A stretch of DNA of 64,000 nucleotides, from NCBI GenBank assembly GCA_964585065.1, contig CAZPCB010000001.1:80034-144033 (forward strand), written 5' to 3'. The position numbers were made by a program, and so were the translations under genes. Source of the stretch: an uncultured Candidatus Saccharibacteria bacterium. GTDB lineage: Bacteria > Patescibacteriota > Minisyncoccia > SW-4-49-11. Positions 10-36,135 of the stretch are shown here, one piece after another (positions within the stretch are counted from its first letter, which is position 1; each line of letters starts with the position of its first letter). Under the pieces are notes generated by a model, which searched no databases, was not told the origin of the DNA, and worked only from the letters and a program-made list of their open reading frames with translations.

Positions 10-1005
10 TTGACTACTAGTAACTACTCAAAGGCTACTATTCGTAATTATGAAAGAGATTTATTGATATTTGAGAAATTCCTCAACGATAATGATTTTG
101 ACTTTAATAGTATTACCAAGAAAACCATAACCATATATCAGGCAGATTTATTAGCTGAGGATAGACAAGTATTCAAAGCTAAATCACAGCATCAAAAAGC
201 TAAACCCTTAGAACCCAAAACTATAAACCGAATGCTAACCAGTATTAGGTCATATTTTGTGTATCTGATAGACAATGAACACCCATGCCCCTTATTACCT
301 CAGCAAATCAAATTAATGAAGCTAGGGAAGTACAAATTACATTTACCCGAGCTAGAAACCTTAATAAAATTCATAGAATCCCCAAAACAATTAGAATCTA
401 ATGCATTTATTGGCCTCAGGAATCAAACCATATTAGAATTAATTTTTGCCTCAGGAATGCGAATTTCTGAAGTTACCCATTTAACCATTGATCAAATTCA
501 TCAAGATGATTCCAAAATTTTGATAAGAGGCAAGGGGAATAAGCAAAGATTTGTGTACTTAACCCCAAGAGCTCATACTATATTAAATGAATATTTGCAA
601 AAAAGATATCAAATTATCAAGCAAGCCCTCCCCTCTCAATATCAAGTGGGGGAGTATATCAATCAATTTACCTATGTATTTATCACCAAAAAGAGTTTTG
701 ATACACTCAAAGGGAATATAAAAGATCATACTCTCCCCTCTTCCCTACTGAATTCCCATATATCCGAGAATTATCTCCAATCCAAAATCAAATCCTATCG
801 TCTATTACTCAATATCCCCTACCCTATCTCCGCCCATACCCTTAGGCATGGATTTGCTACTTATTTAGCTGAGTCAGGAGCCAATCCCGCCGCTATCAAA
901 GTCCTACTCGGACATGAATCCCTCGAGACCACAACCAAATATGTACATGCCTCAGATACCTTTGCCGAAGAAACACATGATAATTTCCACCCCCTCAAAA
1001 AGTGA
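10..1005 (+). CDS. Tyrosine site-specific recombinase, XerC/XerD or phage-integrase family. May be 5'-truncated by the window edge, because the frame is open back to position 1 and the first start is TTG at 10.
   Basis: N-terminal SAM-like region 'SKATIRNYERDLLIFEKFL'. C-terminal catalytic box 'AHTLRHGFATYLAESGANPAAIKVLLGHESLETTTKYVHA' with the R..HxxR..Y signature. Stop is TGA. Confidence 0.75.
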   Translation: MTTSNYSKATIRNYERDLLIFEKFLNDNDFDFNSITKKTITIYQADLLAEDRQVFKAKSQHQKAKPLEPKTINRMLTSIRSYFVYLIDNEHPCPLLPQQIKLMKLGKYKLHLPELETLIKFIESPKQLESNAFIGLRNQTILELIFASGMRISEVTHLTIDQIHQDDSKILIRGKGNKQRFVYLTPRAHTILNEYLQKRYQIIKQALPSQYQVGEYINQFTYVFITKKSFDTLKGNIKDHTLPSSLLNSHISENYLQSKIKSYRLLLNIPYPISAHTLRHGFATYLAESGANPAAIKVLLGHESLETTTKYVHASDTFAEETHDNFHPLKK

Positions 1006-6596: not shown

Positions 6597-7517
6597 TTAT
6601 AGAAGATTTAACGAAGAAGCTTCACAACTACTAAAATCAAGAGTAACAAAATAATTCTCACCTTTCTCCGTTGTAAATGAATGCGCAATATCTATCTCTT
6701 GGTCTAAAATATAATTAATAAATTCATTACTACAGTACTCTTTAACCATCAAATCCTTAAGGAATTCTGTAGATAATTGACTAGAATCTATATTTTGTAT
6801 TTCATATGTATATTGAATAGAACCAGATTGCTGCTCCTTAATTCCTAACAGAGTAATATTATCGTTCAATTTACTCGGAAAAGGTCTATCATTTAATATT
6901 GACACCATAGCAGCAAGCTTACTATCTGTCTCTTCACTATACTCCTCTTCTGACGATGAGTCCAAATACATCTCATCCTCTAATGCACTCCACTCAAGAA
7001 AAAAAGTCACCGATAATATACCAAAAGCAATCAAGAAAAAGATAATCCACCCCTTCGTATCAAAATACTTATATACAGGCTTATGTAATGTTGCTACAAA
7101 GTCCTTATTCCTCAATATCTGAATCAAAACAACCCAAGAACATATAAGGAATACAAGCACCCCAACATATACCCAACTCGTAATACTAATTGTATTTTCA
7201 AAAATAATAAACCCTAAGGATATAATACCCATCAATATAATCAATACCTGTAGATACATCCTTATACTACGATCAACCCCAACTCGTACACGATTCCCTA
7301 ATACAACAAAAATACTCGACAAGATAAGAGTTAATATCATATCCGATATCATCACATCAAAAAAATATTGACCAAGCCCATTGGCATATATCCAAAGATA
7401 GAAAGGAGTCACACCCCATATACCCAACCAACCAATTCCAGATATCATAATTCCCATCCATTTCAGAATAGTCTTACTTCTATCTAATTTTTTAGTATCA
7501 ATCGCAACTTCACTCAT
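6597..7517 (-). CDS. Hypothetical polytopic membrane protein with an acidic C-terminal domain.
   Basis: At least 6 predicted TM helices in the N-terminal 200 aa. C-terminal 'DSSSEEEYSEETDSK'. Confidence 0.45.
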   Translation of the reverse strand: MSEVAIDTKKLDRSKTILKWMGIMISGIGWLGIWGVTPFYLWIYANGLGQYFFDVMISDMILTLILSSIFVVLGNRVRVGVDRSIRMYLQVLIILMGIISLGFIIFENTISITSWVYVGVLVFLICSWVVLIQILRNKDFVATLHKPVYKYFDTKGWIIFFLIAFGILSVTFFLEWSALEDEMYLDSSSEEEYSEETDSKLAAMVSILNDRPFPSKLNDNITLLGIKEQQSGSIQYTYEIQNIDSSQLSTEFLKDLMVKEYCSNEFINYILDQEIDIAHSFTTEKGENYFVTLDFSSCEASSLNLL

Positions 7518-7962: not shown

Positions 7963-8703
7963 TTACGGAAATTCTTTATATCCATATCCTTTCACTCTAT
8001 TCCCCTTACGTCTAAATTTTGACTTTAATATAGAAAAAGGAGGCTTATTTTTATACTGATCTTTATCTAAACAAAATCTACTAATTGGATATGCTACAAG
8101 ATCAGCAATTTGATGACCATTAATATTTTTTGTTTTACCAATAAACTCAATTTTTTGAATATGTTTTTCAAAATCATCTTGAGATACATACCGTTTTCGC
8201 CCTTATCGAAAAACATTATACACATTTATTAAGTCATTATTAGACTTATTATCTCTCGCTTCAATTGAGATAATCCCCGTACCATTATGCTCTTGAAGAA
8301 ATTTAATAAATCTTTCAATAATAAACGAAAATGAAAGTTCATATGGATCACTTGGATCATTATATATAGAAGTTAATTTATCTTTACGAATACAACTAGA
8401 GATAATGGTATAATCTAAATCCTGCATTAATATATTCATATCTTCTATAAAAACTTTTCTTTTCAAAGGGTTGAGTAAAGATTTAAAATCATTTTTTGCC
8501 TTACGAATTTCATAAGAATGTAATATGGTATTTTTATTATTAAAATGATTAATTTTAAGCTTATTTACTTTAGCAATAACTTGCTCCTCATAATATACTT
8601 TTTCAAAAATACACCCTACCAAAGTAAAAATAGGATATTGAATATCATACTTTACTAAGTTATGATCTCCAGATTCATCTAAAAATATAATATATTCTTT
8701 CAT
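7963..8703 (-). pseudogene. DUF3800-family gene interrupted by a single in-frame TAA at 8203-8205. N-terminal part is 8203-8703; in-frame continuation is 7966-8202.
   Basis: N-terminus 'MKEYIIFLDESGDH' (DESG motif). After the TAA the same frame continues for 79 aa: 'GRKRYVSQDDFEKHIQKIEFIGKTKNINGHQIADLVAYPISRFCLDKDQYKNKPPF...' with the DUF3800-like QxADL motif. The combined length of about 246 aa is family-typical. Confidence 0.55.
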
Positions 8704-9488: not shown

Positions 9489-9764
9489 TTATACCATTTT
9501 AATAGTTAAAATATCATCTATCATTTTCTTTGGAATACTAGATGGGATTTCACTTTTAGACTCTTTTATCCTTAAAAAAAGATCATAGATTACTGATTCT
9601 ACTATAGAAACTAGAATAATTGTAATTGGCTTACACAGTCTTCTCTGATCACTTGAAGACGAAGAATTAAATGCATCATATAATACAGCAAGTACTTCAA
9701 GATTATAAATAATATTATCACCATGTGAGAAATTCCATATAAATCCTGACTTCACGGTAAACAT
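9489..9764 (-). CDS. Hypothetical protein (91 aa).
   Basis: ORF in an operon arrangement 8 bp after the 335-aa gene. No recognisable motif. Confidence 0.3.
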   Translation of the reverse strand: MFTVKSGFIWNFSHGDNIIYNLEVLAVLYDAFNSSSSSDQRRLCKPITIILVSIVESVIYDLFLRIKESKSEIPSSIPKKMIDDILTIKMV

Positions 9765-9771
9765 ATCCTAA

Positions 9772-10779
9772 TTATTTAGATATCAAATCAACAAACCTCC
9801 TCACTTTCCCTTTTTCCCAGTCCATAATTTTGGCATATTTCCCCTTATGTTTAAGTGGTCGATTATATTTACATCCTTCACATTCATATTTTTCTATTTT
9901 CTCAGGAGTATATCCATCAATTCTATTTTCTGAGGGTATTATAGTGCTTTCATTATGGTTACAACTCATTGGGATTACATATCTCAAGCCATCCATTTGA
10001 AAAATATTCCAGCTAATTATAATAGCAAATTTTTCTTGTAACTCATTATTTGGTTTTTTCTTGAATTTATCTTCATAATAATCGATAAATGAGTATAAAA
10101 GATTTTCTCTTGCAAGCAAAATATTATCTCCCTGCCATTCATAGCCATAACTTGCTTTAAAAGCTTCTTCTGCCCAATGCAACCAATCTTTTTCATCTTC
10201 GGTATATTTGGATACCACTTGTAATTTAATATCTAAAAAACCTACTCGATTCTTAATCGGTATCAAGTGTCCTTCTTGAGCTGTAGGGTCATATCTACTC
10301 ACAATATACGGAGCCTCTCCACAAGTAATTTCTAGCTTTAATTCTTTGATATATTTTTGCCAATTATGCTTAGTTATGGAATAAATATCCACTGATTTAT
10401 TCATTTGCTTCACTACTGTAAGTGGAGTAAAGACTTCAGCTTTATCTTTGGTACGATATAATTGTTCTTCTTTACTTTTAGAGGCACGAGGTTGAATCAG
10501 GAGATTACCTTTTCCAGTTATTAACTCTGGCTTTATAGGTTTTGTCACACCAAATTTCTTTTTATCAAATTTTTGACTTTCATAAGCATCTGTAGCCCAG
10601 ATAATTCTGCTTTTTGTTATATGGCCTTTTTCAGAATTACTAAGCTTTTCTGTTCGCTGTTTTCTCAGAAGGTTGATAATTTTTTCACTGGGATAATGGA
10701 GTAATAATATATCCAAAATAATCCTCTTGTCTCGAAGAGTATTTTCTAAGATATCAATATTTTTTTGTGCCCCATTCAT
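9772..10779 (-). CDS. Hypothetical 335-aa partner of the helicase-methyltransferase fusion. Carries a degenerate methyltransferase N-terminal motif but no NPPY.
   Basis: Start is 17 nt after the stop of the 1433-aa ORF. 'AEVFTPLTVVKQMNKSV...LEITCGEAPYIV' resembles gamma-class MTase motifs X and I, and echoes 'QIFTPKHVVKMMVNSL' in the big protein. No catalytic (D/N)PP(Y/F). Confidence 0.45.
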   Translation of the reverse strand: MNGAQKNIDILENTLRDKRIILDILLLHYPSEKIINLLRKQRTEKLSNSEKGHITKSRIIWATDAYESQKFDKKKFGVTKPIKPELITGKGNLLIQPRASKSKEEQLYRTKDKAEVFTPLTVVKQMNKSVDIYSITKHNWQKYIKELKLEITCGEAPYIVSRYDPTAQEGHLIPIKNRVGFLDIKLQVVSKYTEDEKDWLHWAEEAFKASYGYEWQGDNILLARENLLYSFIDYYEDKFKKKPNNELQEKFAIIISWNIFQMDGLRYVIPMSCNHNESTIIPSENRIDGYTPEKIEKYECEGCKYNRPLKHKGKYAKIMDWEKGKVRRFVDLISK

Positions 10780-10796
10780 AAGTTTAATATCACTTA

Positions 10797-13700
10797 CTAT
10801 AGGTGGTTTTCAATAAAATCAATTTCTTTTTGGTCTAGGCCATATTTTTTGTATAGCTGCTGATCAATTTCAGGAATAGACTTTGACCAATCTATATCTG
10901 ATTGAGAAGTAAAATCTTGATCTAATATTACATATCCAAAAGAAGATCTTCTATTAGGTTCTTGTAATAATAAAAAAGCAAAAAAATTAGTTTGTGAGTA
11001 TTTGACAAAATTTTCACAATCTTCATCATCATCTGACATAAATAATGAAAGTTTACTCCTTCCAAATGCCGAACCACTAGGAAGTATCTCTATAAGTTCT
11101 TTAGCTCTCAACTTAACATTCTCAATCGTCGGCTTACCCGAAACAAAAGTTTTCTTCGGGTAAGCCGACGTAACAACAACTTTATACTGATCTATATACT
11201 GTTGCCCCTTATTAATTACATTTCTATCTGCCCAAAAAAGCTTAGCTCTTCCTGAAGATCCTGATTTATCGTTAGTGAGTAACTGAATTGCATTATCCCA
11301 ATCTGATTTTTTAAAAGATACTTTTGTAGGGTTCTTCTCTACAAAGTCAGATTCAATTCCAAATACACCTTTTTTAATCCTACTGTTTAATTTTGTACCT
11401 GTTGTTAATTTTTTCCAACTTGAAAAGAAATAAGGATTAGGAGTGAGAGACTGCCAATTTTTTACTTCCACTTCTGCTACATCGTCTGTATATATACGAT
11501 TAGAATACCGATATTTTTCGTGATATTTTGTCATATCACGAAGCACAATAGAAACACCTGCTGATAAGTTAACACTATTCCCAAATATTGGAACAGGGTC
11601 TCTATCCGTTCTATACCAAGCTCTTTTATCAGAGGTACCTTCGTATGCATTTATTAATACCGTATGCCCATCGCTTAATATTTTTTTACCTATCCCTCCC
11701 AGTCTTTCAGGTGCATCAAACCAGCCTCCAAAAGGATAAATAAGACATATATTTTGTGAAATGTTATCAGCCTGTTCCTGGAAATAATAGTATATCCAAT
11801 TTGAATTACCTTGTGTCTGTGTTTGAGATTTACCTACAGTTTCCTGATACGGGGGATTTCCTACTATTGCTGTGAATTTCATATGTTTATCTAGATTAAA
11901 TTGTTCATAGAGTTTGTCTTGGAGAGAAAGACCTTCATCATCTTTCGCATAAGGGATAAGATCTAATTGAGCAAAGTTTTTGGTACTGATGATATGAGCA
12001 TCATCAAAACCAAAGATAAGTGAATTAGTTATAGCGTGCAATACACCAGTTGGGGCAAGTCCATATACCTGATTTTCTAAAATATGTTTTACACAGTCTA
12101 TATCACTACCATATTGACTCCGTGTATTAGTAAAGAGTTTTTTTACAATTTCTGTAATATATAATCCTGACTTCATATACAAATCAATGAAAGTTGTATC
12201 TGTTCGCTTGAATATATCTGGATTATGTTCTTCTAGACTATTTACCATCATTTTAACTACATGTTTAGGAGTAAAAATCTGGTTAGTAGCTTGTGGGGGG
12301 ATAAACTCAAAAATATCTTGTGTACGGTCTTGTAGATAATAATCTGAAAGTTCTGAACGTTTATGCAAAAACTCTTGTACTGATGCATTGAACACATTTT
12401 CATTAAATAGCCCTTCAAAACGACGGCTTTCAATTTGACTAGTTTCTTCATTTTTTGTTTCATATTCAAAGCCATCTCGGAGCTGTCTAAACTCCTCTTT
12501 AGTTATGCTGGTAAGTTCCTGAAATACTTCTTCTGGGATATTCTCGTCAAAGTTATGTAATGTTGTTTTAGAGTCACCATAAGCCATCAAAAAACTGGGT
12601 ATTGTTCTGGAGAATCCTCTGAGACGGTCTCTTGTTTTCTCTTCTTCTGTTTTATCTTTAGGGGCGGGCTTTTCATCTGGTTTTTCTGGCTGATGATAAT
12701 CTGGATCTCCTGGTTGCGGAACTGGATCCGGTATTTTTGCTACAACTTTGGGAAGTTTTTTCTCTAATTCTTTTATAATGACATTGGCCGCATCAGAAGG
12801 TATATTTTTATTACGGAGTTCAGTTGCTACATTGCTTTTAATTGTAGAGACTTCTTTTTCCTCTTCGCTCCCAATTTCTATATATTGCTTATCACCTAAT
12901 AAACCATTAGTAGTGTTAATTATAATATCTTCATTTATATGAATATTATTTTCTTTATCAACCCATATTCGTGGTTTATTTGAGACTTTATTTTTAGTAC
13001 TATCACCTTGTTTACCTCCTTCGTCAGGTGTCATTTTATTAATGATATCCATCACACTTTGAGGAGCTCCAAAAATACCACTAATACTTTCAAATAAGCG
13101 ATTGCTCATAAATCCTCGATTGACTACTTCCTCTGTAATAAGTTTCAAAGGAAGAGTTAATACCTGATTGGCATCGAGTTGTTGCATTCTCCCTTCATCA
13201 TCCTCTGCATACACAAATAATAAATTAATGAGTTCTTGAACTTTAGCTTCTCGTGTGATATTTGTTTTAGCTCCACTTCTATCCGCCATTTCTGCCAAAG
13301 TTTGCAGTATACGATCTGGGGCAAAGTCAAAAACATAACAGTTTTCTTTTGTGTATACTTCTCCTCCGCTCGTTGCAACTTCAAATGGGTTCTGGGCACG
13401 AAAAGCAGTCTGCATATATAATGAAGGGCTCTTACCCCCTTGTAACATCAGCACAGCTGTCCATGAAGGAACAGTAACACCTGTTGTTAACTGACCACAA
13501 GATAACGTAATGGTTTTAGTTTCTAGTGGATGCTTCTCATTATTATGTCCATTTATTGCTGCCCGCACTTCTGCCAGAGCAGAGTTAGTGAGTCTATCTT
13601 CATCACCTTCGCCTGCTGCTAAAATAATAGTATAATCTTGAAAGAAAGGGTGTTCTTGGAGTAATTGCTTCATCAACTTACTTTGAGGTACACCAGGGAG

Positions 13701-15098
13701 TAACCAGAAAGTATGTCGAAGCGATTCGAGAGAGTCTCTATTTGAAAATGGGTATTGATAATTTGGATTAGCTAAATTATCTAAGAAAAGCCTCACTTTA
13801 TCTTCATATACAAATGTATCTTTTCCATTAACTTTGATAACCCTAAAGAATTCTCCTAACTCAAACGCATATTCACTGCCTTCATTTTTTGCTTCTTCTG
13901 CTTTAATTTGCAATGCTCGAGATAATTGATAGGTAAAGATATTGAGCTTTGGTAATGGAGCATATGGATTATTACCATCCTCTATATTCCACTCTGCTTT
14001 AGCATTCTGCTCATCTGTATATGACCAGTTATATATTTGTTTACTATTAAATTTATTACTTGCAAGAGCTTTGAAGGGTGTGCCCGATAAATGGAGTGCG
14101 AAATCATAATTAACAGCCTCTAGAACGCTAAATGAGTGTCTTGTATCTACTCCTTCATGAGACTCATCAATAATTAACACATCCCATTTTATTCCATCTC
14201 CATCTTCTGATTTAAATATCCACTGATTTTTTCTTTTATATGCACTCGCATCCTCTTTTTTGCCTTTTATATCTTGAAGAGATATAAAGTGTACATAATT
14301 TGAATAAATTCCACCCTGACTAAGTTGTTCTTCACGAGTAAGAATACTATCTGAACCAGGAATATCTCTTAGATTTTTTCGAACACTTTCACTAGCAGTA
14401 AATATCCATCTATGTTTATTATCATTTTGACCCGTGTACTTAAAATCAAATTTTTGAAAATCGGTATACCAGCTATCTGCTATAGCTGGTCTATTAGTAA
14501 TAATCAGAACTTTTTTTGCTTGAATATGTTGAGCAAATGAATAGGCCGTAAGAGTTTTCCCAAAACGTGGTTTAGCATTCCATAAAAACTCTGGCTGAAC
14601 ATTGCTATCTACCAATGTATTCTCATAATAAGCAGTGGTTACTTCAACTGCCTGTTGCTGTTCAGTACGTAGTGTAAAGTCAGTAATAATACCCTCTAGA
14701 TTAATTTTGGCGTTTAATTTATAGTTCTCAATGGTTTCAATGATAATGTCTAGATCTGTCTTAAACCATTCTGCCTTTCGATTGGTTAGAGGGTTGATAG
14801 TTTCTTCTCGTTCAATTCCTAATTTTTCTAGTTCTCGATGAATATCATGGTCAGAAAATATTTTCTTGTCGTTTGTGACTGCATTAGTAGTATATAAAAC
14901 TTCATAAGCTACATTACTTGCCTCATGCTGATCAATAATTCTTAGATTATGTCCTTCTCCTATAATATTTAATTTCTTTGTTTGTCCAACCTTTAACCAA
15001 CCCTCATGTGATACGACGTCCAAATGCTTATATACATATATAACTTTTTCTTCAAAAGCTGAGATATTAATATTATCTAAATTATCTGTGGCATTCAT
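10797..15098 (-). CDS. 1433-aa single-polypeptide fusion: N-terminal T5orf172 (GIY-YIG-like) domain, SF2 helicase (DExH), gamma-class N6-adenine DNA methyltransferase, and a C-terminal putative target-recognition region. Resembles Type ISP restriction-modification enzymes.
   Basis: T5orf172: 'VIYVYKHLDVVSHEGWLKVGQTKK...KAEWFKTDLDIIIETIENY'. Helicase: 'KPRFGKTLTAYSFAQ' (Walker A), 'VLIIDESHEG' (motif II), 'LSGTPF' (III), 'QLTTGVTVPSWTAVLMLQ' (V), 'MQTAFRAQNP' (VI). MTase: 'QIFTPKHVVKMMVNSL' (motif X), 'FIDLYMKSGLYI' (degenerate motif I), 'AIVGNPPYQ' (motif IV). Confidence 0.7.
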   Translation of the reverse strand: MNATDNLDNINISAFEEKVIYVYKHLDVVSHEGWLKVGQTKKLNIIGEGHNLRIIDQHEASNVAYEVLYTTNAVTNDKKIFSDHDIHRELEKLGIEREETINPLTNRKAEWFKTDLDIIIETIENYKLNAKINLEGIITDFTLRTEQQQAVEVTTAYYENTLVDSNVQPEFLWNAKPRFGKTLTAYSFAQHIQAKKVLIITNRPAIADSWYTDFQKFDFKYTGQNDNKHRWIFTASESVRKNLRDIPGSDSILTREEQLSQGGIYSNYVHFISLQDIKGKKEDASAYKRKNQWIFKSEDGDGIKWDVLIIDESHEGVDTRHSFSVLEAVNYDFALHLSGTPFKALASNKFNSKQIYNWSYTDEQNAKAEWNIEDGNNPYAPLPKLNIFTYQLSRALQIKAEEAKNEGSEYAFELGEFFRVIKVNGKDTFVYEDKVRLFLDNLANPNYQYPFSNRDSLESLRHTFWLLPGVPQSKLMKQLLQEHPFFQDYTIILAAGEGDEDRLTNSALAEVRAAINGHNNEKHPLETKTITLSCGQLTTGVTVPSWTAVLMLQGGKSPSLYMQTAFRAQNPFEVATSGGEVYTKENCYVFDFAPDRILQTLAEMADRSGAKTNITREAKVQELINLLFVYAEDDEGRMQQLDANQVLTLPLKLITEEVVNRGFMSNRLFESISGIFGAPQSVMDIINKMTPDEGGKQGDSTKNKVSNKPRIWVDKENNIHINEDIIINTTNGLLGDKQYIEIGSEEEKEVSTIKSNVATELRNKNIPSDAANVIIKELEKKLPKVVAKIPDPVPQPGDPDYHQPEKPDEKPAPKDKTEEEKTRDRLRGFSRTIPSFLMAYGDSKTTLHNFDENIPEEVFQELTSITKEEFRQLRDGFEYETKNEETSQIESRRFEGLFNENVFNASVQEFLHKRSELSDYYLQDRTQDIFEFIPPQATNQIFTPKHVVKMMVNSLEEHNPDIFKRTDTTFIDLYMKSGLYITEIVKKLFTNTRSQYGSDIDCVKHILENQVYGLAPTGVLHAITNSLIFGFDDAHIISTKNFAQLDLIPYAKDDEGLSLQDKLYEQFNLDKHMKFTAIVGNPPYQETVGKSQTQTQGNSNWIYYYFQEQADNISQNICLIYPFGGWFDAPERLGGIGKKILSDGHTVLINAYEGTSDKRAWYRTDRDPVPIFGNSVNLSAGVSIVLRDMTKYHEKYRYSNRIYTDDVAEVEVKNWQSLTPNPYFFSSWKKLTTGTKLNSRIKKGVFGIESDFVEKNPTKVSFKKSDWDNAIQLLTNDKSGSSGRAKLFWADRNVINKGQQYIDQYKVVVTSAYPKKTFVSGKPTIENVKLRAKELIEILPSGSAFGRSKLSLFMSDDDEDCENFVKYSQTNFFAFLLLQEPNRRSSFGYVILDQDFTSQSDIDWSKSIPEIDQQLYKKYGLDQKEIDFIENHL

Positions 15099-15943: not shown

Positions 15944-15976
15944 GAATTTAAAAAGCCACCTTTTGAGGGGTGGCTT
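15944..15976 (-). terminator. Rho-independent terminator on the minus strand, immediately after the 137-aa gene.
   Basis: Minus strand 'agccaccccucaaaagguggcuuuuuaaauu'. Confidence 0.5.
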
Positions 15977-15984
15977 GGGGCAGG

Positions 15985-16398
15985 CTATATCAGAACATTC
16001 ATAATATCTGATTGAGCTCTGTCTAATAAAATTTTATAAACTTTTTCAATCTTATCGGGTAGATGAGACATCCTCTTTACATTATTACGACTGAATGCTG
16101 TAATGTCAAATAAATCACTATCCTTTTCTTGCTTATAATTATCGTATAACTCATTCAGAGTTATGATGATATCATCTACATCCTCATTGATATCTTCATT
16201 TTCAATATACTTTCTCAAATTTACTATTAATGTTATATATTGTAATAATTCGTCTAATCCATTTAGAATAATTCTGAAGAAATCGTTTTTCTCAAAAGAT
16301 TCTGATCTTATAGAGGGATGAGGAATTATTAATTGAGAGAATTCCTCTCGAAGAGTAATAATGCTTTGAACCTGAGTTGAAGAGATTAAAGAGCTCAT
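15985..16398 (-). CDS. Hypothetical protein (137 aa).
   Basis: ORF followed by a terminator. No recognisable family. Confidence 0.4.
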   Translation of the reverse strand: MSSLISSTQVQSIITLREEFSQLIIPHPSIRSESFEKNDFFRIILNGLDELLQYITLIVNLRKYIENEDINEDVDDIIITLNELYDNYKQEKDSDLFDITAFSRNNVKRMSHLPDKIEKVYKILLDRAQSDIMNVLI

Positions 16399-27761: not shown

Positions 27762-27853
27762 TGGCGGAGAGAGAGAGATTTGAACTCTCGATAGGTTTGA
27801 CCCTATACTGCGTTTCGAATGCAGCGCAATAAACCGGACTATGCGATCTCTCC
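27762..27853 (-). tRNA. tRNA-Ser (anticodon CGA), type II with a long variable arm. CCA is encoded.
   Basis: Acceptor GGAGAGA/UCUCUCC, 3-bp D-stem, anticodon loop UUCGAAA, variable arm AUAGG-GUCAAA-CCUAU, T-arm GAGAG-UUCAAAU-CUCUC, then G-CCA. Confidence 0.8.
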
Positions 27854-35270: not shown

Positions 35271-35276
35271 ATAGTG

Positions 35277-35365
35277 CGCAGAAGAGGACTTGAACCTCCA
35301 CGGTACTTTGTATTTTCCCACAAGCACCTCAAGCTTGCGTGTCTACCATTCCACCACCTGCGCAT
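35277..35365 (-). tRNA. tRNA-Leu (anticodon GAG), type II with a long variable arm. CCA is not encoded.
   Basis: Acceptor GCGCAGG/UCUGCGC. D-arm GUG-GAAUGGUAGA-CAC. Anticodon arm CAAGC-UUGAGGU-GCUUG. Long variable arm. T-arm GGAGG-UUCAAGU-CCUCU. Discriminator A. Confidence 0.7.
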
Positions 35366-35397
35366 TTGAGAGTTTTTAGACTCTCGGAAAGCTGATA

Positions 35398-35811
35398 TTA
35401 TTCAGCTGAGGTAATTTGTTGTTCTGGAGTAGCTTCTACTACTGGAGCTGATTTTGTTGACTCTGTAGTAATAACTTTTTTGGTTCGCTCTTTTAGACGA
35501 TATTTCTTTCCTACTGCTTCTCTCAAGTAAAAGAGTTTAGCTCGGCGAACTTTATTATGCTTTAGGATTTCTACTTTTGCAATATTAGGAGAATATATAG
35601 GGAAAATTCTCTCAACACCTATTCCAAGAGATACTTTTCTTACGGTGAAAGTAGCAGAAATACTGGTTTTTAGATGTTTTGCAATTACAATACCTTCGAA
35701 TATCTGAATTCGCTCTTTTGTTCCTTCAATAACTTTTTGATGTACTCGAACAGTATCCCCTATTTGTATAGGTTCAAATGGTAATTCTGTAGGTGTTGCT
35801 GCTGTACTCAT
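35398..35811 (-). CDS. rplS: 50S ribosomal protein L19 with a roughly 20-aa C-terminal extension.
   Basis: '[26 protein letters not shown]...[30 protein letters not shown]' is the canonical L19. Confidence 0.9.
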
Positions 35812-35849
35812 ATCATTGTCTTATATAATCTCCCTATAATGTGTTGGGG

Positions 35850-35923
35850 TGGGCGATGTAGGATTCGAACCTACGACCCTCTCGGTGTAAACGAGATGCT
35901 CTAACCAACTGAGCCAATCGCCC
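35850..35923 (-). tRNA. tRNA-Val (anticodon TAC).
   Basis: GGGCGAT-UG-GCUC-AGUUGGUUA-GAGC-A-UCUCG-UUUACAC-CGAGA-GGGUC-GUAGG-UUCGAAU-CCUAC-AUCGCCC-A. Perfect cloverleaf. Confidence 0.85.
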
Positions 35924-35962
35924 CAAGTAGTAGAATGAATCTTCTTATAGCGAAGCTCATTT

Positions 35963-36039
35963 TGGTAGCGATAGGAGGGATCGAACCTCCGACCTCGGGC
36001 TTATGAGTCCCGCGCTCTAACCAGCTGAGCTATATCGCC
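35963..36039 (-). tRNA. tRNA-Met (anticodon CAT). Elongator type is most likely, but a lysidine tRNA-Ile2 cannot be excluded. CCA is encoded.
   Basis: GGCGAUA-UA-GCUC-AGCUGGUUA-GAGC-G-CGGGA-CUCAUAA-GCCCG-AGGUC-GGAGG-UUCGAUC-CCUCC-UAUCGCU-A-CCA. Confidence 0.75.
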
Positions 36040-36063
36040 AATTAAGAGAAAGATACATCTTTG

Positions 36064-36135
<72 letters not shown>

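Follow-up and report, generated by a model that had tools for sequence, protein, structure and literature searches.

What does the small gene that follows a large helicase-methyltransferase gene in a Candidatus Saccharibacteria genome contribute to its neighbor? The two genes lie in the window, by which we mean the whole 64,000-nucleotide (nt) stretch of DNA that was analyzed (contig CAZPCB010000001.1, assembly GCA_964585065.1, positions 80,034 to 144,033 of the forward strand). The small gene is an intact open reading frame (ORF) with an ATG start (window 9772-10779, minus strand) that encodes a protein of 335 amino acids (aa) and begins 17 nt past the stop of a 1433-aa ORF (10797-15098, minus strand). 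A sequence-only reading had described the 335-aa protein as an echo of the N-terminal motifs of the methyltransferase (MTase) in the upstream protein, without the catalytic (D/N)PP(Y/F), and had proposed that a partial duplication of that module was recruited as a non-catalytic partner with a specificity or regulatory role. Our results lead us to lean towards a different answer, in which the two genes encode a two-subunit, ATP-dependent restriction-modification (R-M) enzyme whose MTase is naturally split, with the small subunit completing it in trans.

We examined the motifs of both proteins. The peptides on which the echo rested were found: the 335-aa protein contains AEVFTPLTVVKQMNKSV at aa 114-130 and LEITCGEAPYIV at aa 149-160, while the large protein carries QIFTPKHVVKMMVNSL at about aa 940-955 and FIDLYMKSGLYI at about aa 970-981. 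Motif X of the small protein (AEVFTP) is invariant in 18 close homologues. Within it, E115, T118 and P119 are invariant in a 13-sequence alignment that includes full-length MTases and are at least 90% conserved in 79 sequences, and the motif aligns with HGEVFTP of a small family that is positive for Pfam N6_Mtase. In motif I, E150, C153, G154, E155 and P157 are invariant in the 79 sequences, and the motif aligns with LEPSAGEGAFL of the small family, which consists of N-terminal MTase halves (N-halves) only. The degenerate motif I is the large protein's copy (KSG), and that of the small protein is not degenerate. Motif II, motif III and a Cys/His cluster of the small protein are additions to the motifs X and I noted before. 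Motif II (SYGYEWQGD) is invariant in the 18 close homologues and aligns with LYGIELLED, with its E214 at least 90% conserved in the 79 sequences; motif III (WNIFQMDG) is also invariant in the 18, and its N258, Q261 and D263 are invariant in the 79. Overall, the 18 close homologues share about 100 invariant positions, and 18 positions are still invariant in the 79-sequence alignment. The motif I-III positions are conserved on what is predicted to be the half that binds S-adenosylmethionine (AdoMet). By comparison with M.TaqI, we take E150, E214 and D263 to be the AdoMet-contacting acids.

The tetrapeptide [DNS]PP[YFWH] is absent from the 335-aa protein, as the sequence-only reading had it, and from 121/121 close homologues. 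The protein is not a complete gamma-class MTase, as it lacks motif IV and the latter part of the fold. Instead, it has the features of an MTase N-half, with motif X before motif I and motifs I-III on beta-strands 1-3. A first AlphaFold2 (AF2) run with 18 similar sequences was unusable (predicted local distance difference test [pLDDT] 58) and was replaced by a run with the 79-sequence alignment, which gave a monomer model with a pLDDT of 92.9 and a predicted template modeling score (pTM) of 0.91. The model consists of an N-terminal helical region (aa 1-113), three Rossmann-type core strands at motif I (aa 148-151), motif II (aa 210-214) and motif III (aa 259-261), and short strands (aa 279-296 and 317-328) that form C-terminal hairpins around the Cys/His cluster; it does not contain the complete seven-stranded Rossmann-like fold or a target-recognition domain (TRD). 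All its structural neighbors are MTases, namely LlaBIII (8.4), CamA (7.9), HsdM of StySJI (7.2) and M.EcoKI (6.7), followed by DrdV (6.4), BsaXI (6.3), PglX (6.1), MmeI (6.0) and BpuSI (5.3). Among viral models, Foldseek matched short phage proteins named 'N-6 DNA methylase' (E 1.7e-10).

The Cys/His cluster, in which C273, H275, C300 and C303 are invariant in the 18 close homologues, is a probable zinc ribbon that would bind zinc. The region gives a faint match to DUF7129, is found in some full-length relatives of about 650 aa and missing from others, and ends just before the point at which beta-strand 4 starts in these relatives. One hhalign register offered PMSC in the small protein as a substitute motif IV. 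We rejected this candidate, as the full-length relatives contain PxSC, then the zinc-ribbon-like region and then a true NPPY.

Profile searches also pointed to an MTase. The REBASE-derived PADLOC profile PDLC03390 ('MTase_II') matches the 335-aa protein over its full length (E 6.3e-85), in two stretches that together cover the protein, the better of which spans profile positions 135-323 of 327. Pfam, NCBIfam and PHROG hold no family for it, and sequence and profile searches of PDB chains gave no match for the 335-aa protein, the 1433-aa protein or a full-length relative. The family is large, with more than 7,633 proteins in 90% clusters, 1,272 clusters at 50% identity and a median length of 307 aa, and its members come from Patescibacteria, Bacteroidota, Gammaproteobacteria and others.

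The full-length relatives show what the small protein corresponds to. These proteins of about 630-720 aa contain the whole 335-like module, followed by KFDxVIGNPPYQ, a variable domain or TRD and, at the C-terminus, the SDIDW...QLYKKYGL...FIE motif that the large protein also has. The 335-aa protein is 40-50% identical to the N-half of Eco57I-like MTases of about 650 aa (E 1e-45 to 1e-65), and aa 1060-1433 of the large protein align end to end with their C-terminal halves (C-halves; E down to 1.7e-42). One such MTase (P0133) consists of a PDLC03390 match (aa 6-315) and a match to PDLC03375 (aa 322-669). Of these two profiles, the small window protein matches only the first, while aa 1072-1430 of the large protein match only the second (profile positions 8-342 of 348). 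Together, the full-length relatives and the PADLOC pattern identify the 335-aa protein as the N-half, and the tail of the large protein as the C-half, of one Eco57I-like gamma-class MTase. Each MTase motif is present once in the two halves taken together, and there are complete homologues in a single chain, with the caveat that the large protein holds an additional, degenerate N-half.

The large protein combines several modules. Its T5orf172 match is borderline (20.2 bits against a cut-off of 20), and this domain is a candidate nuclease. Pfam ResIII (aa 141-342) and PHROG 16 'DNA helicase' (aa 138-682) cover the superfamily 2 (SF2) motor. A Pfam Eco57I match spans aa 1009-1149, with NPPY at aa 1081-1084 (window 11847-11858), and PADLOC reports both REase_MTase_IIG (PDLC03626) and MTase_II (PDLC03375). 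The C-half closes with the conserved SDIDW...QLYKKYGL...FIE helix, and the protein ends ...SDIDWSKSIPEIDQQLYKKYGLDQKEIDFIENHL. Ahead of the C-half lies the degenerate N-half, which we call the pseudo-half (N′), with QIFTP as motif X, IDLYMKSGLY as a variant motif I, VYGLAPT as a motif II that lacks the acid, and FAQLDL as motif III. Across 55 large proteins, TP and KSG are invariant, and there is no conserved motif II acid and no Gly-rich (GxG) loop.

To judge from sequence comparisons, the motif echo between the two proteins is real but ancient, and the two regions are distant paralogues. BLASTP of the 335-aa protein against the 1433-aa protein was not significant; the top-scoring segment coincides exactly with the FTP stretch (E 0.28). 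Profile-profile comparison of the 335-aa family with the pre-NPPY region of the 55 large proteins recovered the same motif pairs at 15% identity (E 2.8e-4, probability 41%). The similarity became firmer through a third family, short N-half-only proteins of 217-260 aa named 'N-6 DNA methylase', which matched the 335-aa family with a probability of 99.3% (E 2e-20) and the pseudo-half with a probability of 95.4% (E 1.7e-8). Two members of this third family that we scanned (L085 and L086) both pass Pfam N6_Mtase, at profile positions ~20-112 only. Thus, the profile similarity anticipated by the sequence-only reading exists, but its partial duplication of the neighbor's module does not hold: at 15% identity there is no recent copy, and the small protein is the conserved N-half of the Eco57I-like lineage.

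The pseudo-half is the diverged copy and is part of the helicase subunit, because it is also found at the C-terminus of the ~1100-aa helicase partners of complete MTases. In 3/3 readable contexts, a complete ~650-aa MTase gene is followed by a gene for a ResIII protein of about 1100 aa. These helicase partners match the large protein from aa ~10 to ~1055-1067, including NQIFTP...DLYMKSGLY...QVYGLAPT, and stop just before the NPPY half.

We determined whether the two window genes occur together elsewhere by fetching 80 genome loci, of which 60 had at least 4.6 kb of upstream sequence and were informative. In 59 of these 60, the small gene is preceded on the same strand by a gene for a helicase-MTase protein of 1,276-1,456 aa, with a gap of 60 nt or less in 46 cases. 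No other gene is consistently linked to the pair across the fetched loci. This obligate synteny bears out the earlier view that the small protein is a dedicated partner of the upstream fusion protein. Eleven of the 59 loci (L022, L029, L030, L034, L037, L042, L044, L057, L059, L060 and L064) have same-strand inserts of 0.9-2.9 kb between the partners. The inserts encode a Bro-N protein, among others, and further proteins that we take from their sequences to be RhuM-like and DUF1016/PD-(D/E)xK-like; they resemble the hitchhiker genes that occur within Type I R-M operons.

Across 54 loci, pairwise identity differs between the parts of the system. The small subunit is the most conserved (mean 0.58, minimum 0.41), followed by the helicase (median 0.36), the NPPY region (median 0.35), the pseudo-half (median 0.22) and the TRD (median 0.22, mean 0.25). 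The identity matrix of the pseudo-half tracks that of the helicase (r 0.93), while that of the C-half does not (r ~0.3). Since the C-half is decoupled from the motor, it behaves as an exchangeable cassette, joined where the natural splits fall. Mirror-tree correlations between the small subunit and each segment of the large subunit (0.19-0.46) were too weak to separate mechanisms.

Natural fusions and splits also mark out these modules. With N, N′ and C for the three MTase parts and R for the helicase, we found all pairwise fusions: N-C, R-N′-C, N-R (P0232, in which the N-half is fused to the helicase) and N-N′-C (P0253, which has N-half, pseudo-half and C-half in one chain). In Arthrobacter pJ349-116, N, R-N′ (a helicase that ends after the pseudo-half) and C are three separate genes. 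A second, shorter N-half-only family occupies the same place beside divergent large proteins on plasmids of Firmicutes, where it flanks the large protein, and of Actinobacteria. Every architecture found keeps a 2:1 count, with two N-type halves per one C-half. The clearest split occurs in Tenacibaculum phage PTm1, in which ORF277 is a 344-aa C-half-only protein starting at MKFDIIVGNPPYQQ. The large protein's aa 1073-1433 align with it (ORF277 starts MKFDIIVGNPPYQ; E 2e-18). Two genes downstream, with a helix-turn-helix (HTH) gene between, ORF279 is a 335-aa N-half-only protein, and no helicase gene is present among the 16 annotated features of this ~11-kb stretch. As the PTm1 C-half has no N-half of its own, the PTm1 N-half must act in trans.

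A model that accommodates these data is that the MTase is divided between motifs III and IV, ahead of beta-strand 4, with its catalytic half joined to the end of the motor subunit. The small protein would be the AdoMet-binding N-half, built from an N-terminal stretch of helices, motifs X and I-III (beta-strands 1-3) and the zinc-ribbon-like tail. The motor subunit would provide the rest, that is, motif IV (NPPY), the remaining strands, the TRD and the C-terminal helix, together with the T5orf172/GIY-YIG-like nuclease domain, the SF2 translocase and the degenerate pseudo-half. The two subunits would associate physically, the small one docking on the C-half of the large one to complete the cofactor and adenine pocket in trans. 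The TRD of the large subunit would then pick the site, and so set strand and site specificity, and host DNA would be N6-methylated there. At an unmodified site, the same large subunit would translocate and cleave with its candidate nuclease. The small protein reads as functional in this scheme because it is the most conserved component and its AdoMet-contact positions are invariant or nearly so. It has no catalytic motif of its own, but the labels "inactive" and "non-catalytic" given to it before are doubtful: E150, E214 and D263 are conserved, and the fusions and splits imply that it forms one MTase fold with the NPPY half.

Several observations weigh against completion in trans. The pseudo-half retains the TP, the acidic residue that ends strand 1, a Gly and an aromatic residue, and the motif III acid, and on this evidence may still bind AdoMet. 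It directly precedes the C-half with normal motif III-IV spacing, and one Pfam Eco57I match spans both. The large protein alone could therefore fold as a complete MTase domain, leaving no obvious place for a second N-half at beta-strand 4. Since P0253 has both N and N′, the two may not be alternatives. Foldseek against the PDB found nothing significant for the 335-aa model (best E 0.42), and only the ranking pointed to MTases. Finally, at one locus with upstream room (L056:360-10834), the sole one without the cognate large gene, the small gene adjoins a different MTase/helicase system. The genes before it there encode a complete MmeI/TaqI_C-type MTase (871 aa), a Schlafen/AlbA_2 protein (636 aa), a PLD-SNF2 helicase (1120 aa) and a Bro-N protein; this copy is either orphaned or in a different partnership.

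Alternatively, the small protein may be a regulatory or assembly subunit, an explanation close to the earlier idea of a non-catalytic partner and one that we regard as possible but distinctly less probable. Here, N′ and the C-half of the large protein would form the working MTase. The 335-aa protein would be an orphan half that binds AdoMet or DNA and has a regulatory or scaffolding role in the complex; it could tie restriction to the availability of the cofactor or determine how modification and restriction are balanced. The contiguity of N′ and C-half at canonical spacing under a single Eco57I match fits this explanation, as do the persistence of several motif residues in N′ across very divergent lineages, the coexistence of N and N′ in P0253 and the confident folding of the 335-aa protein as a monomer by AF2. 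Every architecture also has one "extra" N-type half, including the pairs of a complete MTase and a helicase-N′ protein, so orphan halves are tolerated. However, N′ is fast-evolving and has neither the motif II acid nor the Gly-rich loop, and it is also present in helicase subunits whose MTase partner is already complete, where it is not needed as an N-half. The AdoMet-motif residues of the small protein are invariant or nearly so in the slowest-evolving part of the system, and in phage PTm1 the N-half must complete the C-half in trans. For these reasons, we favor completion of the active site in trans over an AdoMet-binding regulatory subunit.

The constant count of two N-type halves could also reflect two alternative N-halves for one catalytic/TRD module. 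The canonical half in trans and the motor-tethered pseudo-half in cis could trade places on the NPPY/TRD half. One site reader would then serve both a state that methylates (N:C, with AdoMet) and a state that restricts or translocates (N′:C, no methyl transfer), a half-domain-swap switch from modification to restriction and back. We consider such a switch unlikely.

A specificity (HsdS-like) or DNA-binding subunit that sets or extends the recognition sequence, as the sequence-only reading had also suggested, is very improbable. Although the N-terminal helical region (aa 1-113) and the zinc-ribbon-like tail could contact DNA, and a small partner gene beside a large R-M fusion is reminiscent of Type IIB or Type I systems, mean identity of ~58% across Patescibacteria, Bacteroidota and Gammaproteobacteria is too high for such a role when the partner's TRD, the most variable part, averages 25%. 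Moreover, family and fold searches returned neither an HsdS nor a TRD match for the 335-aa protein, and the TRD and TaqI-like C-terminal architecture belong to the large protein. Least credible of all is that it is a decaying remnant of a disrupted full-length MTase, as its exact correspondence to a truncated MTase might suggest, or the restriction endonuclease itself, as the Prokaryotic Genome Annotation Pipeline (PGAP) names some plasmid-borne homologues in Enterococcus and Pediococcus: the family comprises thousands of intact copies, uniform in length, with many invariant positions and a fixed operon position, no nuclease family or fold matches a protein whose structural neighbors are all MTases, and the large protein already has a candidate nuclease domain.

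We compared the locus with known systems. The closest are the uncharacterized pairs of a ~650-aa Eco57I-like MTase (PDLC03390 plus PDLC03375) and a ~1100-aa T5orf172/ResIII helicase (loci L092-L095), which share the same modules and operon logic, with identities of 40-50% for the N-half, 25-32% for the C-half and 35-50% for the helicase with its pseudo-half. These relatives have the MTase as a single chain and a helicase that stops after the pseudo N-half, whereas the window has an MTase divided ahead of beta-strand 4, with the C-half on the helicase and the N-half in a separate gene. In PTm1, the N-half is orthologue-like (39.5% identity), the C-half belongs to the same family as aa 1073-1433 of the window protein, and the gene order (C-half then N-half) is as in the window (NC_049340), but there is no helicase, nuclease or pseudo-half, and an HTH gene separates the halves; this pair is presumably a stand-alone protective MTase. 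Our literature searches turned up no account of this family or of any half-MTase subunit, while databases already hold profiles of both halves, labeled simply as Type II MTases. The nearest two-polypeptide precedents are M.AquI and M.EcoHK31I, in each of which two polypeptides reportedly form one C5-cytosine MTase in a simple Type II system. There too, one MTase fold comes from two gene products, but the window enzyme would be of the gamma class, act on N6 of adenine and be divided after motif III and before motif IV, with one half on a helicase-nuclease and an extra pseudo-half.

In its working, the system would resemble Type ISP or Type I/III-style motor-driven R-M. The Type ISP enzymes LlaGI and LlaBIII (PDB 4XQK; PMC3553950) likewise combine nuclease, SF2 motor, gamma-class adenine MTase and TRD in a large polypeptide. 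However, each of them consists of one chain that includes an Mrr-type nuclease and an entire MTase domain, while the window has a T5orf172/GIY-YIG-like candidate and a second subunit that carries the canonical AdoMet motifs. A phmmer search of the 1433-aa protein against PDB sequences gave no LlaBIII or LlaGI match. The locus thus seems to fall outside Type ISP: it is not a single polypeptide, its N-terminus matches T5orf172 and not an Mrr-type (PD-(D/E)xK) nuclease, and homology to LlaBIII or LlaGI is not detectable. For the gene set of MTase, helicase and T5orf172 protein, the nearest precedent is DnmA-YeeB-YeeC of Bacillus subtilis, in which an adenine MTase is encoded beside an SF2 helicase and a T5orf172-domain protein in defense islands (PMC9973331). 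These are three separate proteins, DnmA is a complete MmeI-like MTase, and no half-MTase subunit is described (PMC9973331).

If the model is correct, this is a natural and very widespread N6-adenine MTase that is split at the motif III/IV boundary and coupled to an ATP-dependent nuclease-motor. The split design is widespread yet uncharacterized, and the 335-aa-type protein is annotated in thousands of genomes, especially of Patescibacteria (the candidate phyla radiation) and Bacteroidota, on dairy and enterococcal plasmids and in some phages. Its main interest lies in annotation, in methylome assignment and in the meaning of the constant count of two N-halves to one C-half. The half-enzyme identity corrects the current labels, which include 'restriction endonuclease subunit M' (the NCBI name of homologues), 'restriction endonuclease' (PGAP), 'Type II methyltransferase' and 'hypothetical', and assigning a methylome to genes requires that a 335-aa-type protein be paired with its NPPY-bearing partner. 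The split also predicts a swappable NPPY-plus-TRD cassette, consistent with the shuffling of the C-half independently of the motor. The system would be a simple test of how self-protection and restriction are coupled, and may be a compact natural scaffold for split-MTase tools.

Features of the two-gene locus, with positions in the window
Feature	Position	Strand	Basis
Small subunit (335 aa): proposed AdoMet-binding N-half of a gamma-class N6-adenine DNA MTase, encoded alone and lacking motifs IV-VIII and a TRD	9772..10779	-	ORF, PADLOC, homologues, AF2
Motif X, AEVFTP (aa 114-119)	10423..10440	-	homologue alignments
Motif I, LEITCGEAPY (aa 149-158); beta-strand 1 and AdoMet loop	10306..10335	-	alignments, model
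Motif II, SYGYEWQGD (aa 210-218); beta-strand 2, acidic residue E214	10126..10152	-	alignments, model
Motif III, WNIFQMDG (aa 257-264); beta-strand 3, D263	9988..10011	-	alignments, model
Cys/His cluster and beta-hairpins (C273, H275, C300, C303, H311); probable zinc ribbon	9847..9963	-	alignment, model
Large subunit (1433 aa): T5orf172/GIY-YIG-like, SF2 helicase, pseudo N-half, catalytic C-half with TRD	10797..15098	-	Pfam, PADLOC
T5orf172 (GIY-YIG-like) domain (aa 20-125); candidate nuclease	14724..15041	-	Pfam PF10544, E 8.8e-4
SF2 helicase/translocase region (aa ~141-700)	12999..14678	-	Pfam ResIII, PHROG 16
Pseudo N-half, N′ (aa ~935-1060)	11919..12296	-	alignment of 55 large proteins, profile comparison
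Catalytic C-half (aa 1073-1433): MKFTAIVGNPPYQ (motif IV), later motifs, TRD, C-terminal helix	10800..11882	-	PADLOC, alignments

Some homologous loci vary this arrangement. In one (L061:9986-11644), the small subunit is a 552-aa version (P0122) with a C-terminal extension of ~245 aa that has no Pfam match. In another, two fragmentary 335-like ORFs of 204 and 117 aa (L047:4925-5992) lie upstream of the large gene, with an intact copy downstream; the fragments look like a decayed second copy. Six of the fetched genome loci and an Enterococcus plasmid have a DUF262/GmrSD-like gene directly downstream of the pair (L082:13128-14372, L011:10922-12697), which suggests a recurrent link of this R-M type with a modification-dependent (Type IV) nuclease.

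In the window, the pair is flanked by housekeeping genes (RNase Y, HU, TruB, a DEAD-box helicase, Dus, KsgA and ABC-F) and therefore forms a small chromosomal islet. Promoter and terminator scans gave matches no better than those in shuffled sequence, and the sole useful site was a terminator-like hairpin (15953-15976, minus strand) upstream of the operon. This hairpin comes after a 137-aa ORF (15985-16398, minus strand), setting it apart from the large gene; the ORF has only weak matches (PADLOC CARF2--CARF, E 9e-4; Pfam Tad5, E 0.056). On the other side, a 91-aa ORF (9489-9764, minus strand) starts 7 nt past the stop of the 335-aa gene and has a faint HEPN_RiboL-PSP match (E 0.082). We considered and rejected it as a third component, since it recurs only in an identical metagenomic contig (L001); it lies outside the conserved pair and may be a fragment. 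Further downstream in the same islet are a 166-aa DUF3800 protein (8203-8703, minus strand; E 1.8e-11) and a 306-aa ORF of no known family (6597-7517, minus strand), which could be further defense-related cargo. At the window edge, ~9 kb from the R-M pair, lies a gene for a 331-aa protein of the tyrosine recombinase/phage-integrase family (10-1005, plus strand). A tRNA cluster (35274-36135, minus strand; Leu-GAG, Val-TAC and two Met-CAT) and a separate tRNA-Ser-CGA (27762-27853, minus strand) are both ordinary chromosomal features unrelated to the R-M pair.

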